From the NCBI GenBank assembly GCA_009777775.1, contig WRLE01000017.1:5622-69621 (forward strand): a stretch of DNA of 64,000 bases, in the 5' to 3' direction. Below the pieces are notes generated by a model. That model searched no databases and was not told the origin of the DNA. It was given only the letters and a program-made list of their open reading frames with translations. The stretch comes from Oscillospiraceae bacterium (GTDB lineage: Bacteria > Bacillota > Clostridia > Oscillospirales > Oscillospiraceae). Of this stretch, positions 2,063-6,751 are shown piece by piece; the stretch's first letter is position 1, and every line of letters begins with the position of its first letter. The position numbers were made by a program, and so were the translations under genes.

Positions 2063-3211
2063 ATGAAAAAGAAATCCCTTACAGTCATATTTGTCCTGTG
2101 CTTGATAATCGTCCTTTTGCCCATTAAAACAAAAGCTGCTATATCTCCTCACTTCATTGCTGTAAACGATACATTATTGCCTTTTCGTGATGATGTAATG
2201 CCTTATATAAACGGTGAGCAGATACTTGTTTCCCATGAAATTTTTTCCAATGTGGGTGTATGGTCAGTTTCAGCTGGGGATTTTGAGGAAGTTCGCCTCT
2301 ATGTTGGAGCGCGGCAAGTGGACTTTTATCCAGAGTCTGGTCTTACACAAAATCAATTTGGCAATGAATTATCCTGGCCTGCTGCCCAAGTCATTGGCGG
2401 CAAGTTCTATGTACCCCTCCATCAAGTCTGTGAATATTTCGGCTTGGAATATCAGCTAATCGAAATCGGGCGTACCGTCATCCCAGACAAACAAATTTGG
2501 ATAATCAGGATAATATCCAGTGCCAGATTGTCAAGTACTGAATTTGTCAATAGATACAGAACAGATATTTTATCAGCATATGACGAGTATTATGCTCCAC
2601 CCACACCGATTCAAACGGAAATATCGATTATGGAACCAACACCAAGCTATAGCGATGTGTCTGTGTATCTAAGCTTTCACGATATTTCCTCCCCATATAT
2701 AAGCGAAATTGTTGATTTGTTGGAAAACTCAAATCCAGCAAATTACACAGTATGTTTCTTTTTAAGTGCCAATGACATAAAAAATAACCCCGCCATGGTG
2801 CGAAAGCTTGATGGCATGGGTCATGTAATTGGTATTTGGCTCCAAGAGGGTACATATGAGGAATATTTAAATACCTCGGCTTTGCTATTTGAAGCAGCAA
2901 AGGTGAAAACTGTTTTAATTTCAGCAGATATAGCAGAAGCAGAAGCATCGGAAATGGCCCAAATGCATGGTTTGTCCTATTGGGGTGCTTCCATTCACAT
3001 CGGCGGTACTCCAGCAACTCCAAGCAGCCTAATAAACTGGACAGCAATTGCGGTAACCGATGCTCTACCCACCTTGAGTCCCGATGGGTTTTGCCTACGC
3101 TTTGCCTGCAACGAAAATGCAGCAGCCATGCTCCCCAGCGTTTTCAACCACCTATATACATATGAATACACGGTTCCAGCAATCACCGAAACAACAAATC
3201 CAATAAAATAG
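2063..3211 (+). CDS. Secreted hypothetical protein; C-terminal half may be polysaccharide-deacetylase (NodB)-like
   Basis: Signal peptide MKKKSLTVIFVLCLIIVLLPIKTKA. The C-terminal segment VCFFLSANDIKNNPAMVRKLDGMGHVIGIW only loosely recalls NodB-type deacetylases, so function is uncertain. Confidence 0.5.
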   Translation: MKKKSLTVIFVLCLIIVLLPIKTKAAISPHFIAVNDTLLPFRDDVMPYINGEQILVSHEIFSNVGVWSVSAGDFEEVRLYVGARQVDFYPESGLTQNQFGNELSWPAAQVIGGKFYVPLHQVCEYFGLEYQLIEIGRTVIPDKQIWIIRIISSARLSSTEFVNRYRTDILSAYDEYYAPPTPIQTEISIMEPTPSYSDVSVYLSFHDISSPYISEIVDLLENSNPANYTVCFFLSANDIKNNPAMVRKLDGMGHVIGIWLQEGTYEEYLNTSALLFEAAKVKTVLISADIAEAEASEMAQMHGLSYWGASIHIGGTPATPSSLINWTAIAVTDALPTLSPDGFCLRFACNENAAAMLPSVFNHLYTYEYTVPAITETTNPIK

Positions 3212-3225
3212 CTTTCGTTTATGAC

Positions 3226-3633
3226 CTAGATTCGTTCAAAAGTCGCTTCATTTCCGTTGAAGGACAGCCTTATATCGAAGTATTTCAACACATTCATCCC
3301 CACAACCGCAACAGCATAACTATCTTGCGGAAAATCGTGTCCTTGAATGATAACATCGGAAAAGACAACATTGCCCATTCTGATTTTGTGAACCATCACT
3401 TCGGATACGTTTTCCATACCACTTGCCGTCGCTGCTTTTCTCTTGGCAGAGGCGGTATCGTTTTCATATCCCAGAGCATTGAGCAAGTCCTTACATACCG
3501 TAGTGACGCTGGCACCGGTATCAAGGATGGCAAGGGTGTTTCGATAAACTGATTTGTTGCGATCCCAGAGATAAAAATCTATCATGGGCACTCCATTGTG
3601 CATATGCAGCTTAACAATATTGCTATTACTCAT
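3226..3633 (-). CDS. Retropepsin-like (clan AA) aspartic protease, single domain, no signal peptide
   Basis: Active-site motif AILDTGASVTTV (D-T-G-A), a 135-aa single lobe implying a homodimer, and a late GMNVL flap/dimer-like segment. Its start overlaps the stop of the upstream small ORF (TAATG). Confidence 0.7.
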   Translation of the reverse strand: MSNSNIVKLHMHNGVPMIDFYLWDRNKSVYRNTLAILDTGASVTTVCKDLLNALGYENDTASAKRKAATASGMENVSEVMVHKIRMGNVVFSDVIIQGHDFPQDSYAVAVVGMNVLKYFDIRLSFNGNEATFERI

Positions 3634-3857
3634 TACAGAATGCTCACTCCTTCCGGTATTTTTCCGATATAGCGAAATGACGTGGATAAGGCATATTCCT
3701 CGTACTCTTCGAATCTGCTGACAATGTTATTTCTATCCACATCGCTGAGAATTACCCTGCCATTGATAATAGTACCATTTTCATCTTCTTCACAATCAAT
3801 CATCAGTACCCATTTACCGCTATATTCTTCAGTAATGCGTTCCATACTTTCTATCAT
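3633..3857 (-). CDS. Small acidic protein (74 aa) translationally coupled to the retropepsin-like protease
   Basis: The ORF is very rich in D/E (CEEDENG, EEYEEY). The GKWVLMID...G.VIL pattern recalls small DUF5678-like proteins. Overlaps the downstream protease gene by 1 nt. Confidence 0.55.
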   Translation of the reverse strand: MIESMERITEEYSGKWVLMIDCEEDENGTIINGRVILSDVDRNNIVSRFEEYEEYALSTSFRYIGKIPEGVSIL

Positions 3858-4094
3858 TTTTCTCCCCCTCGTTTCGCTGCATCGCTGGGCAAAAGCAAGG
3901 TCGAATTATCCATCGTAAAGAAATACGACACAGCATTAATAGCCAAATTATCTATTTTGAATATATAAAATTCGTAGCCAATTATCCATTTTTTCGCCAG
4001 CTATGGAACTATGTATGGAACACATTATCACAATGTAATCGTTTTTTCAATATATTATAACAATTTACGAAATAATTTTTATTTCTATTTTCAA

Positions 4095-4158
4095 TATGTA
4101 TAAACTTATGTGTAAAACCCTTGACAAACGTATAATTCTACTACTAATATAGGGTATA
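4095..4158. repeat. 64-bp direct repeat, copy A, carrying a sigma-A-type promoter (TTGACA 4121-4126, 18-nt spacer, TAATAT 4145-4150)
   Basis: Near-identical, about 4 mismatches by eye, to 6688-6751 (TATGTATAAACTTATGTGTAAAACCCTTGACAAAYGTATAA...CTAATATAGGGTATA). Confidence 0.8.
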
Positions 4159-4178
4159 ATTATTAAAGGATATATTAC

Positions 4179-4280
4179 ATGATAAAACTATCAAGCTTTA
4201 GTAAAAACAAATTCTTAGAACGCATAAAGGCTTTCAACAAGCTTCAAAAAATCCTATTTGCATCCTTGTAGTATATTTAA
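4179..4280 (+). pseudogene. Truncated, frameshifted 5' fragment of a paralog of the membrane-protein gene at 13197
   Basis: The DNA segment GAACGCATAAA.GC.TTCAACAAGCTTCAAAAAATCCTATTTGCATCCTTGTAGTATATTTA matches 13237-13300. One T is missing from the T-run, giving a premature TAG after 30 codons (MIKLSSFSKNKFLERIKAFNKLQKILFASL). Confidence 0.75.
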
Positions 4281-4294
4281 AAAGGTATACCAAT

Positions 4295-4321
4295 AAGGCA
4301 TCTTGTGACGCAAGATGCCTT
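4295..4321 (+). terminator. Hairpin terminator (11-bp perfect stem AAGGCATCTTG / CAAGATGCCTT, 5-nt loop) followed by ATCTTTTAT
   Basis: Perfect inverted repeat read directly. It lies between the pseudogene fragment and the 3' end of the methyltransferase gene. Confidence 0.65.
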
Positions 4322-4365
4322 ATCTTTTATAAATCTGGTTATAATGCTAATACTTATTTAACGCA

Positions 4366-5313
4366 TCAATATAGTTTAAGTTGCCCATTTCGCAATTGGT
4401 AATAATTGGAATTATACTGCTCTCTTCCTATCATTATATATTTATATAATATATTGGCAACATATTCAGCCATTTTTACTGGTACTGCATTTCCTATCAT
4501 TTGCTCAAGGTCAGTTTTATTGCCAAATAATATAAAATCCTTTGGGAAGGTCTGTATACGAGCACGTTCATTTGTTGTAAGCGGTCTTACTAAATTGAAA
4601 TCTTTAATAGCATCTCCCTTATGGAAATTATATGTCTTTGGTATTGGTCTATTAACACCTCTGATTGTTGGACTAGGCTCATCAATACTGAAAATCCCTC
4701 TTCTAGCATATGAACGAGGGTGTCTATAGAAATACTCAGTATCAAGCTCATCCCCCATATAATCACGTATGGTAGTGCTACAATCAGACAGATTATTTAT
4801 TATATCATCCTTGATAAAATCGTCATTTCCGAATAATTCACCAAATAAAAAGAATCGTTTACGCTTTTGAGGTACGCCACATCTTGAAGCATCAATAACA
4901 ACCTGCGTTAACCCATAATTGTTATTCCGAAAGAGGTTTACTGCTTGTTCTAAGGCAAATGAAGAAACTATCCTCTCCACATTTTCCATAACGAACCACT
5001 TTGGTTTTAACCCGCATACTATCTCTGCAAATTTAAATGTTAAACTTGCTCGCGCAATAGTTTCGATTCTTTTCCCAGCAGCAGAAAAATCCTGGCAAGG
5101 AGGACCTCCGATAATCAAATCAGCTTTATGTTTACTAAAAAAGTCATATTGCTTGTCAGACAAATCAAGCGTTATCGCTTTGTGCGTAAAATTCGTATTA
5201 TAAATGTCAATTGCGTTATCCCAATTGTCATATGCAGCCACTATATTGAACCCAGCATTTTGAAAACCGAGAGAAAGCCCACCGCAACCGCAAAATAAAT
5301 CTAGCACATTCAC
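4366..5313 (-). CDS. DNA (cytosine-5)-methyltransferase, type II R-M
   Basis: Motif I DLFCGCGGLSLGF, motif IV GGPPCQDFS, motif VI ENV, motif VIII QKRKRFFLFG, motif IX RPLTTNERARIQTFP, motif X GNAVPV. Confidence 0.95.
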   Translation of the reverse strand: MNVLDLFCGCGGLSLGFQNAGFNIVAAYDNWDNAIDIYNTNFTHKAITLDLSDKQYDFFSKHKADLIIGGPPCQDFSAAGKRIETIARASLTFKFAEIVCGLKPKWFVMENVERIVSSFALEQAVNLFRNNNYGLTQVVIDASRCGVPQKRKRFFLFGELFGNDDFIKDDIINNLSDCSTTIRDYMGDELDTEYFYRHPRSYARRGIFSIDEPSPTIRGVNRPIPKTYNFHKGDAIKDFNLVRPLTTNERARIQTFPKDFILFGNKTDLEQMIGNAVPVKMAEYVANILYKYIMIGREQYNSNYYQLRNGQLKLY

Positions 5314-5328
5314 TTTATGTCATCACTC

Positions 5329-6405
5329 CTAAAATAAATCTGGTGAATTAACTATAATTGCATCGAATCGTCTTTCTGGACTCAGCAGTTGCTGACCTCC
5401 GCCGAGTATTATATCTTTTATTTCCTCTTTTCTTATTCTTGGCTTTGTTAGTTCTTCACAATCCATATATTTATGTGTTTTATTACCTGCTGTTGCGAAT
5501 GCTTTGTCGTTTTTAGTATTATATGTTAATTCGCTGTAGATGCTTTTGCCATCGAAATGCCCATGCTTTGAATAATCTAAAAGCATCTTATACAACCAAA
5601 TGCAGCTCCTGATATGTCGTGTAATAGACTTAATATGCGTATTTTGTTCGGGTAAAAATAGATTAAGTATACCTATATTGCTCCATATAAATACATCCAG
5701 ACAATACTCTGACAGTTGAGAGCTATTTCCGATTGTTTTCCAAATTGGATTGAGTATTATTGGCGTTTGGTATTCATGTTTTTCATGTGCAATCTGACGT
5801 ATAGATGAGTTTATATCATGTATATATGGCAAAACCTCTCTTGCTTCAGACCAGTCTGCTATATCATCACATCCATTCCCTACTATTTTACCAATAGTTG
5901 TTGTATCACCACCAAAAAGCTCAATAAAGCTACAAGCTAGGTATATAATTGTGTCTGGCCTCACAACCAATTCAATACCATATTGATCTTCAGATAATTC
6001 GTATGTTGTGCTGTCAGGTAAGGCTGTAAGCTTTATTTCAAAAGTACTTACACAAGCGTCATTCGATAAATTAATAATAGTAATGTCATTTCTTGGCATT
6101 GGACCTACGACATATTTTTGATATGGTGTGTATGGTGTTTCGAATGCATAAAAAGTGTTTGTATCTAATGGTTCAATATTAAGAATTTCATCAAACCCTT
6201 TGTAACTAATATTACTGTTTAAATCACCATCAGCGGTGATGTAAATAGCTCTCATATTATTATGATACATATAGCATGAAAGAGATATAGGTAATGTCGC
6301 ATTAAATATGTTTTTACCCCAGGTGTCTTTGTCGGAAAAATTTCTGTTAGAATTATTTATACCAAACAATCTCGGATTATTTATTTCCATATCCAACCTA
6401 CCCAT
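5329..6405 (-). CDS. Putative type II restriction endonuclease, cognate of the m5C methyltransferase
   Basis: Lies 15 bp upstream of, and co-oriented with, the methyltransferase. PD-(D/E)XK-like signature ND...STFEIKLTALPD. The start was moved to the ATG at 6405 (MGRLDMEINN) because it has AAGGA 7 nt upstream and a good promoter at 6425-6453. The ORF track extends to 6567 without any RBS. Confidence 0.6.
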   Translation of the reverse strand: MGRLDMEINNPRLFGINNSNRNFSDKDTWGKNIFNATLPISLSCYMYHNNMRAIYITADGDLNSNISYKGFDEILNIEPLDTNTFYAFETPYTPYQKYVVGPMPRNDITIINLSNDACVSTFEIKLTALPDSTTYELSEDQYGIELVVRPDTIIYLACSFIELFGGDTTTIGKIVGNGCDDIADWSEAREVLPYIHDINSSIRQIAHEKHEYQTPIILNPIWKTIGNSSQLSEYCLDVFIWSNIGILNLFLPEQNTHIKSITRHIRSCIWLYKMLLDYSKHGHFDGKSIYSELTYNTKNDKAFATAGNKTHKYMDCEELTKPRIRKEEIKDIILGGGQQLLSPERRFDAIIVNSPDLF

Positions 6406-6424
6406 AGCATATTCCTTGCTGTCA

Positions 6425-6453
6425 AGTATACAGCAGTTTGCAGATATAAGCAA
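6425..6453 (-). promoter_or_regulatory. Predicted promoter of the restriction endonuclease gene (TTGCTT, 17-nt spacer, TATACT)
   Basis: On the minus strand: TTGCTT at 6453-6448, a 17-nt spacer, TATACT at 6430-6425, then a 19-nt leader containing AAGGA before the ATG at 6405. Confidence 0.5.
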
Positions 6454-6687
6454 GTGGAAATAGGTGGATATGTTGTTATTCTGTGATAATGTATTACAAG
6501 TCATGGGAGTGCTAGAATCTTTTGCATTGCCAGTCATTGCATATATAGTACGCACTAACAGTGTCATTTAAGAGTACCAGCGAAGAATCTCATTACACCG
6601 AACTGCCGATTATAGAGATTCTTCGGTCGCTGGCTCTCTCAGAAAGACACTTGATTGTTACCCGTGACCAGTAATGTCTATTTGCAT

Positions 6688-6751
6688 TATGTATAAACTT
6701 ATGTGTAAAACCCTTGACAAATGTATAAATCTACTGCTAATATAGGGTATA
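6688..6751. repeat. 64-bp direct repeat, copy B, carrying the same promoter (TTGACA 6714-6719); upstream of the RCC1/lipase genes
   Basis: Near-identical to 4095-4158. Confidence 0.8.

Follow-up and report, generated by a model that had tools for sequence, protein, structure and literature searches.

A small DUF5678-like protein and a retropepsin-like protease form a conserved accessory gene pair in bacteria and archaea

Within a 64,000-nucleotide stretch of contig WRLE01000017.1 from an Oscillospiraceae bacterium (assembly GCA_009777775.1, positions 5,622 to 69,621; this whole stretch is called the window below), the gene of a small acidic protein runs directly into that of a soluble, single-lobe protease of the retropepsin type, the two making up a 632-bp pair that encodes no membrane parts (Table 1). 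This pair belongs to a recurrent cassette: in bacteria as in archaea, its two genes are passed on, lost and inverted together, and occasionally they are fused. To our knowledge, hardly any of the soluble retropepsin-like proteases, which occur here and there in bacteria and archaea, has a known role; the present analysis gives a large group of them a fixed, co-evolving partner of 75 residues, within a cassette whose behaviour is that of a mobile conflict module. The reading that we favour, and that we hold to be about evenly poised between right and wrong, is a protease restrained by its partner in a toxin-antitoxin- or defence-like module.

An initial annotation of this DNA had let its proposal of a functional protease pair depend on the pairing being kept in other genomes; it is kept in genomes from Bacillota to archaea, with one natural fusion and with correlated divergence of the two partners. 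In the four closest relatives of the window protease, all on metagenome contigs (L001-L004; the loci compared are numbered with the prefix L), a homologue of about 75 residues overlaps the protease start, the gene being called at 90 residues in L003. Identity to the window proteins is 51-62% for the small protein and 56-77% for the protease, and comparison of the window pair with these four pairs gave nonsynonymous divergences (dN) of 0.14-0.37, with synonymous divergences (dS) saturated or above 1.2. The layout of the window was also found in the Bacillota loci L007, L032, L033 and L039.

Eight diverse members of the small-protein family were then considered, picked solely for lying on long contigs: they come from a Xenococcaceae cyanobacterium, Armatimonadota, a gammaproteobacterium, Desulfobacteraceae, Theionarchaea, Altiarchaeales, one further genome of 6.4 Mb and a JGI contig. 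In each of the eight, an intact or decayed retropepsin gene is found at the 3' end of the small gene. Six carry an intact Asp_protease_2 gene of 126-133 residues that overlaps the small gene by 4-11 nt or, in L048, starts one base later; the remaining two have no gene call there, and a recognisable protease lies at the same place, broken by in-frame stops or a frameshift. Among 15 tabulated bacterial and archaeal pairs, the junction is an overlap of 1-11 nt (a 1-nt gap in L048) in 14, and the fifteenth departs from this in its short gene call only, its reading frame being open. A WOR-3 genome encodes the two as a natural fusion of 216 residues, with the small domain N-terminal and the protease after it (L054 3001-3651, JAJRUZ010000042.1). 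Over 14 pairs, the pairwise identities of the two partners correlate (r = 0.86, permutation p = 2e-4), also when the close cluster is left out (r = 0.52, p = 0.001); given that kinship inflates such tests, we take this as evidence only that both genes travel together. Because the pair recurs in the four metagenome contigs under dN < dS and in many distant lineages, it is more than a chance arrangement.

The downstream gene encodes a bona fide single-lobe retropepsin-like aspartic protease. Its product passes the gathering cut-offs of PF13975 (44.2 bits against 28.2) and PF13650 (41.3 against 24.3), together with a match to NCBIfam TIGR02281 that stays below that model's own cut-off. The LDTGAS motif named in the initial annotation is indeed present at residues 37-42 (L37-D-T-G-A-S42, catalytic D38-T39-G40), accompanied by V-V-G112-M-N. 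Across 29 aligned partner proteases from bacteria and archaea, D38-T39-G40 never varies, and at least 90% of the sequences keep G112 of the hydrophobic-hydrophobic-Gly motif. An AF2 (AlphaFold2) model built on this 29-sequence alignment, with a predicted local distance difference test score (pLDDT) of 90.3 and a predicted template modelling score (pTM) of 0.83, finds its best Foldseek match in ApRick of Rickettsia conorii (5c9f_A, template modelling (TM) scores 0.73/0.74, expectation value (E) 4.6e-8). Next come single pepsin lobes and then proteases of the human immunodeficiency virus (HIV), with target-normalised TM scores of 0.71-0.77 for HIV-1 and HIV-2; the matches include complexes with IA3, among them 1dp5. 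ApRick, or APRc (PDB 5c9b, 5c9d, 5c9f), likewise a single-lobe DTG protease, is the closest solved structure by both profile and fold and the only solved relative by sequence profile (E 0.002), whereas the window protease is only 17% identical to it and has no membrane segment. APRc is reportedly membrane-anchored, processes surface autotransporters and has no small partner gene. By analogy with the retropepsin family, the window protease would be active only as a homodimer, with one Asp contributed by each chain. That neither protein of the pair has a signal peptide, as had been annotated, agrees with N-termini that, judged by eye, have no hydrophobic segment.

The partner is acidic, with 16 D/E against 7 K/R and a pI of 4.26. 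None of the model libraries searched gives it a name. With 12.0 bits (E 0.2), it does not reach the cut-off of 23.2 for its best Pfam match, DUF5678 (PF18929), a family of proteins of about 50-80 residues that has a G-[EKQ]-W-V motif in common with it and whose Pfam entry records neither function nor partner. Among 58 aligned members of the small-protein family, 24 match DUF5678 at E < 0.1 (best 3.4e-6), and the family is probably a divergent branch of the DUF5678 superfamily. A profile of six close relatives, run against 1.8 billion proteins, returned 181 cluster representatives at E < 1e-3, nearly all of 70-90 residues, and homologues are encoded at L001-L004, L007 and L039. W16 (within G-[KEQ]-W-V) and G65 are invariant in the family alignment. 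With 181 representatives in the family, W16 and G65 unvaried and dN far lower than dS, we rejected a chance or non-coding open reading frame (ORF).

The AF2 model of the small protein (pLDDT 86.4) consists of a helix (residues 5-12), a beta-hairpin (strands 15-24 and 30-39), a second helix (42-51), a strand (59-64) and a low-confidence tail, and thus predicts a folded alpha/beta domain; its conserved C-terminal segment is disordered when the protein is modelled alone. Conservation peaks in the folded core, at W16, G33, V35 and G65. The tail, G65-K-I-P-E-G-V-S-I-L74 in the window, is conserved yet unstructured in the model, with the family consensus G-x-[ILV]-P-[EKD]-[DG]-[VLI]-A-[VIF]-[LIVM]-[LF], in which the five-residue end is mostly hydrophobic and closes with L or F. 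Its Gly is kept in 210 of 225 family members; in 118 of these 210 the chain ends 9-11 residues further on, and 87% of the tails of up to 11 residues finish with two hydrophobic residues. Two further residues beyond the hydrophobic strand were seen in 44 of the 210 tails, in one subclade. The AGGAG ahead of the protease start is built from the Glu-Gly codons of this tail and is likely the Shine-Dalgarno sequence of the protease gene. Since AGGAG is restricted to the window's own clade and L059, and is missing from most distant pairs, an embedded Shine-Dalgarno sequence was rejected as the cause of the tail's conservation. A known fold was not recovered for the small protein by Foldseek at E < 1 in PDB or at E < 0.1 in BFVD (predicted viral proteins).

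Some family members depart from the single-domain architecture. In five proteins (P0030, P0036, P0085, P0122 and P0130), the small domain is tandemly duplicated in one chain, and in P0017 it is joined to the C-terminal strand region of the protease only, apparently as a deletion remnant.

In its distribution, the cassette behaves as an accessory, horizontally moving module and not as a housekeeping enzyme. It is single-copy in the genome of the window. In our surveys, which are samples of genomes, true matches to the small protein were found in 1 of 400 other genomes of the same order, none of 26 of the same family and 4 of 400 other genomes of the phylum (about 1% of the Bacillota sampled); two spurious matches (L008 and L044) and one that was not inspected (L045) are not counted as true. 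The flanks differ in every lineage. At L002, the left flank, with ABC ATPases, the type III pantothenate kinase CoaX and a 380-residue protein, is colinear with the window and the cassette is inverted. A right flank common to the window and its relatives was considered and rejected: L001 and L002 have a URO-D gene after the pair, and nothing in the window is homologous to it; the left flank alone is syntenic. In Armatimonadota, the cassette is present as two tandem copies (L048 3001-4310 and L049 340-1649). The protease of the first copy has no precomputed Pfam match and a protease profile match of 4e-32, and the second L048 protease, called short at 97 residues, has a frame open over its full length.

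Decay is frequent, with at least nine decayed copies. These comprise intact small genes beside a truncated or broken protease (L027, L038, L055 and L058), protease fragments alone (L028, L029, L030 and L037) and a truncated orphan small gene (L041). Full-length solo proteases with no small gene beside them were detected at L023 and L026. The proteases at L055 2673-3154 and L058 1932-2336 both contain in-frame stops, the former also a frameshift, and are for that reason absent from the gene calls; these interrupted genes may be pseudogenes, or they may be recoded.

A pattern scan of IMG/VR revealed a copy in a predicted prophage, on a 26-kb viral contig (UViG_2820630457_000005, L059). The immediate downstream neighbour of the pair there is the gene of a large serine recombinase, and a BrnT toxin gene is found some 300 bp upstream of the pair. 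The integrase end of this contig (2408-6001) reads, in order, an XRE repressor, a divergent small ORF with a weak retropepsin match, BrnT with its partner, the pair and the large serine recombinase; together these genes make up a short island of cargo resembling toxin-antitoxin systems. The more divergent second pair on it has the protease motif DTGC and a Pfam E of 0.005.

At three loci the cassette stands in a metabolic setting. The fusion of L054 is placed between genes that resemble, by sequence, the alpha- and beta-type subunits of a 2-oxoacid:ferredoxin oxidoreductase operon, the split pair of L007 adjoins genes for a ferredoxin and an alpha-type oxidoreductase subunit, and at L057 the pair, with a Uma2 gene, interrupts the suf operon. 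These contexts may be insertions into operons, or they may hint at a target.

The window module appears from profile comparisons to be a sister clade of PDC-M08, a phage-defence candidate of PADLOC (cassette CAS_00054, FAM_03167>>FAM_00414, count 381) and one of 145 candidates, nominated on copies embedded in BREX, DISARM or type I restriction-modification (R-M) loci (Payne et al., bioRxiv 10.1101/2024.01.29.577857). Canonical PDC-M08 in Bacillota consists of an 81-87-residue A protein (PDC-M08A E 1e-30 to 1e-36) whose gene overlaps that of a DTG protease of about 128 residues. The window pair is alike in its A>>B order on one strand with an overlap, and in the succession of a small protein (about 86 residues in PDC-M08) and a DTG protease (about 128). 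The window protease matches the PDC-M08B models PDLC04405 (E 5.9e-10, 37.3 bits) and PDLC04402 (9.9e-6), and all DUF5678-partnered proteases tested match PDC-M08B at 1e-7 to 1e-13, against 1e-25 to 6e-46 for canonical PDC-M08B proteases, the full-length members of which score 90-156 bits. A PDC-M08B-like protease match was present in 25 of 300 other Bacillota genomes sampled, with a patchy distribution.

The small protein is further removed. No match between the window protein and the PDC-M08A model was detected at E up to 1, and only 5 of 58 family members match it directly (best 9.2e-6), whereas hhalign aligns the family with PDC-M08A over 62 columns (probability 87%, E 3.9e-6). From these comparisons, the window small protein would be a distant homologue of PDC-M08A and not a member. 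The motifs differ as well: proteases paired with DUF5678-type proteins carry H-x-[FLI]-P (H-x-F-P in the window), which is absent from PDC-M08B proteases, the latter having D-F-G-x-I-D, and the window small protein ends in G-x-I-P-E-G-hydrophobic-L, in contrast to the basic ...G-[LFY]-R-[GR] of PDC-M08A. A search that requires both PDC-M08 models presumably misses the window locus. Membership in PDC-M52 was also considered for this branch and is not supported, with only E 0.005 for the protease against M52B and none of the small-family members matching M52A. A literature search on DUF5678, PDC-M08, Asp_protease_2 and retropepsins in defence returned no description of a DUF5678-retropepsin pair, and among the papers covered only one, unrelated, mentions DUF5678.

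In the reading that we favour, the small protein would be translated first and the coupled retropepsin made afterwards, the TAATG junction being the predicted site of translational coupling, and the small protein would serve as a dedicated stoichiometric partner of the protease. That the two form a complex is the proposed step in which we place most confidence. Next comes restraint of the protease by the small protein, in the manner of an antitoxin or of a prosegment acting in trans, and third the C-terminal hydrophobic strand as the contact element, lying either in the substrate cleft or over the terminal-strand interface of the dimer, which it would cap. Restraint is suggested because coupling with the small gene first has the partner made no later than the enzyme, and because the cassette shows toxin-antitoxin-like population behaviour. 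Should stress, phage infection or the loss of the element remove or displace the partner, the protease would be set free to cleave proteins of the cell or of the phage, and the module would then act, by analogy, like a type II toxin-antitoxin or abortive-infection cassette.

The likeness to type II toxin-antitoxin modules lies in the two small overlapping genes, the smaller first, in an autonomous and mobile existence that is patchy, sometimes tandem and often decayed, and in a prophage copy beside another toxin-antitoxin pair. Classical antitoxins bind DNA, however, whereas the window small protein has no DNA-binding fold. No aspartic protease is known to have been described as a toxin of such modules. 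The 2009 compendium of toxin-antitoxin systems by Makarova mentions no aspartic protease (PMC2701414). The toxin-antitoxin-like or defence-like logic that the initial annotation had suggested draws only indirect backing from the patchy distribution, the varying position and orientation, the decay, the prophage copy with BrnT and the kinship to PDC-M08.

Several observations weigh against a restrained toxin. The solo proteases of L023 and L026 imply that the protease alone need not be lethal, and they speak against obligate toxicity. Decay is not clearly asymmetric, with four loci in which the small gene is intact and the protease broken against two solo proteases. No match to the small protein was obtained from helix-turn-helix, ribbon-helix-helix or AbrB families; it is acidic and has no recognisable DNA-binding domain. 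The two-residue extensions of 44 of the 210 tails indicate that a free carboxylate at a fixed position is not required. The neighbours of the cassette are defence-like only sometimes, and tblastn searches of plasmids and of the GenBank phage collection gave no match to the window protease.

Inhibitors and prosegments of aspartic proteases include the pepsinogen prosegment, the p6*/transframe region upstream of the HIV protease and yeast IA3. Like these, the window small protein is a short acidic polypeptide, encoded upstream of or separately from an aspartic protease whose cleft it is suggested to fill, and the WOR-3 fusion sets the small domain where a prosegment would sit. In that fusion, the tail segment would form the linker just before the protease, at the spot of a self-processing junction or prosegment. 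The differences are that no sequence or fold relation was found (none in Foldseek at E < 0.1) and that the two parts are usually separate genes, making the comparison a mechanistic analogy only. A more specific version of our reading, which we put forward tentatively and consider rather unlikely, is a protease-based toxin-antitoxin or abortive-infection system in which a DUF5678-like prosegment acts in trans, with its tail in the cleft or capping the interface, until a phage or stress signal removes it and unleashes the protease; the stop codon would here take the place of the self-processing junction of the fused WOR-3 form.

Should the small protein prove to inhibit and the protease to act as an effector, aspartic proteases would join the toxin-antitoxin and anti-phage effectors, and with its two proteins the pair would be a simple system in which to study the restraint of a retropepsin dimer, with a bearing on the origin of retroviral-type proteases and their upstream regulatory peptides. 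Were the version with a prosegment in trans to hold, this would be the first known aspartic-protease effector in prokaryotic immunity and a prokaryotic parallel to the regulation of retroviral protease by the upstream transframe peptide.

The small protein might instead be an activator, an assembly factor or an adaptor that serves folding, dimerisation or substrate choice, for example by donating a beta-strand to the dimer sheet, and the pair would then amount to a regulated protease that processes a specific target in the cell, not to a toxin. An obligate two-subunit enzyme would account for strict co-inheritance, translational coupling and the fusion no less well than an inhibitor would, and tandemly duplicated small domains would match a twofold-symmetric protease dimer. 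The placement of the cassette inside the metabolic operons of L054 and L057 is in line with this alternative too. A precedent exists in RimB of Pseudomonas, the one studied soluble bacterial retropepsin, which works in complex with RimK and is accessory and horizontally spread (PMC11957791). RimB resembles the window protease in being a soluble bacterial retropepsin-like protease with a dedicated partner; that partner, however, is an ATP-grasp ligase and not a 75-residue protein, and RimB acts on the polyglutamate tail of ribosomal protein S6. An activator is nonetheless rather improbable in our view: presence in about 1% of genomes, changing flanks, frequent decay and carriage by a prophage are unlike a housekeeping enzyme, two loci keep a full-length protease on its own, and no candidate substrate gene is conserved with the pair.

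It is less probable still that the pair consists of an enzyme and its dedicated substrate, the protease cutting the small protein, for instance to remove the C-terminal hydrophobic segment, and the product being the functional molecule. The conserved, disordered hydrophobic tail may resemble the cleavage-site preferences of retropepsins, and the position of the tail segment directly ahead of the protease in the WOR-3 fusion recalls self-processing retroviral polyproteins. Yet it is the folded core, and not a short peptide, that is most strongly conserved; genes for export, modification or immunity do not accompany the pair in a conserved way; and stoichiometric, coupled synthesis would be unusual for an enzyme and its substrate. 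The precursor-peptide alternative of the initial annotation fares poorly, the small protein being a folded alpha/beta domain in the model (pLDDT 86) and neither a transporter nor a modifying enzyme being conserved alongside.

The methylase and the type II restriction enzyme about 500 bp from the pair, together with the nomination of PDC-M08 on copies embedded in R-M, BREX or DISARM loci, could suggest an anti-phage system functionally linked to the neighbouring type II R-M genes in one defence island, an idea that we consider very improbable considering the GC content of the R-M cassette (31-38%, against 40-46% for the pair and its left flank), the 78-nt repeats around it, the terminator between it and the pair, the absence of R-M genes from L001, L002 and L007, and the weak or generic nature of the PADLOC matches among the neighbours tested in L046, L048, L050 and L052 (weak BrxP, LeoA-like GTPases, a UvrD-type helicase). 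The R-M cassette looks like a discrete low-GC insertion separate from the pair. As a repeat-bracketed insertion that the relatives' loci lack, it gives no clue to function; its adjacency marks a variable chromosomal spot and is at best weak evidence for a shared function.

Table 1. The gene pair, its expression signals and the adjoining R-M cassette, in window coordinates (a lone dash: no strand assigned)
Feature	Position	Strand	Remarks
Small acidic partner gene	3633-3857	minus	74-aa ORF, DUF5678-like divergent family member
Retropepsin-like protease gene	3226-3633	minus	135-aa ORF, soluble, single-lobe
TAATG stop/start junction	3631-3635	minus	TAA 3635-3633, ATG 3633-3631, one base common to both
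Shine-Dalgarno sequence of small gene, GGGGGAG, strong	3868-3862	minus	read from sequence
AAGGAG in tail codons of small gene (P-E-G)	3647..3652, AGGAG at 3652-3648	minus	13-14 nt 5' of protease ATG
AT-rich upstream region of the pair itself	3858-4080	minus	weak sigma-70-like candidates, e.g. TGGATA-17-TATATT at 3988-3960
C5 methylase gene	4366-5313	-	PF00145, 1.5e-68
Type II restriction enzyme gene	5329-6567	-	PADLOC REase_II, 4.9e-116
Methylase terminator hairpin	4293-4323	-	between R-M genes and pair
78-nt direct repeats, 92% identical	4081-4158 and 6674-6751	-	bracket R-M cassette; each holds TTGACA-18-TAATAT

In its local arrangement, the pair largely bears out the initial annotation. The D/E-rich ORF of 74 residues and the ORF of 135 residues have the coordinates given for them and overlap through TAATG by a single base, and the pair is the sole minus-strand unit between the ABC, CoaX and 382-residue protein genes on one side and the R-M genes on the other, in agreement with the annotated position between housekeeping genes and an R-M cassette. 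An AT-rich upstream region of about 500 bp had also been described; its length and composition stand (3858-4365, 508 bp, GC 27-30%), but part of it holds the methylase terminator and a copy of the 78-nt repeat of the R-M insertion. Sigma-70-like promoter matches upstream of the pair numbered 10, against 6.6 +/- 3.0 in shuffled sequence, and are therefore not above expectation. A 15-nt inverted repeat, 93% complementary, connects codons 4-8 of the small gene (3833-3847) with positions 4013-4027, about 160 nt upstream; it may form a leader hairpin if the transcript starts further upstream, and could equally arise by chance in AT-rich DNA.

On the other side of the pair, the gene of a secreted protein of 382 residues (2063-3211) is convergent with the protease gene, with 14 nt between their stop codons. 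This protein has sub-threshold Pfam matches only, to polysaccharide deacetylase and the copper amine oxidase N-terminal domain, and its counterpart beside CoaX is kept in the relative L002.

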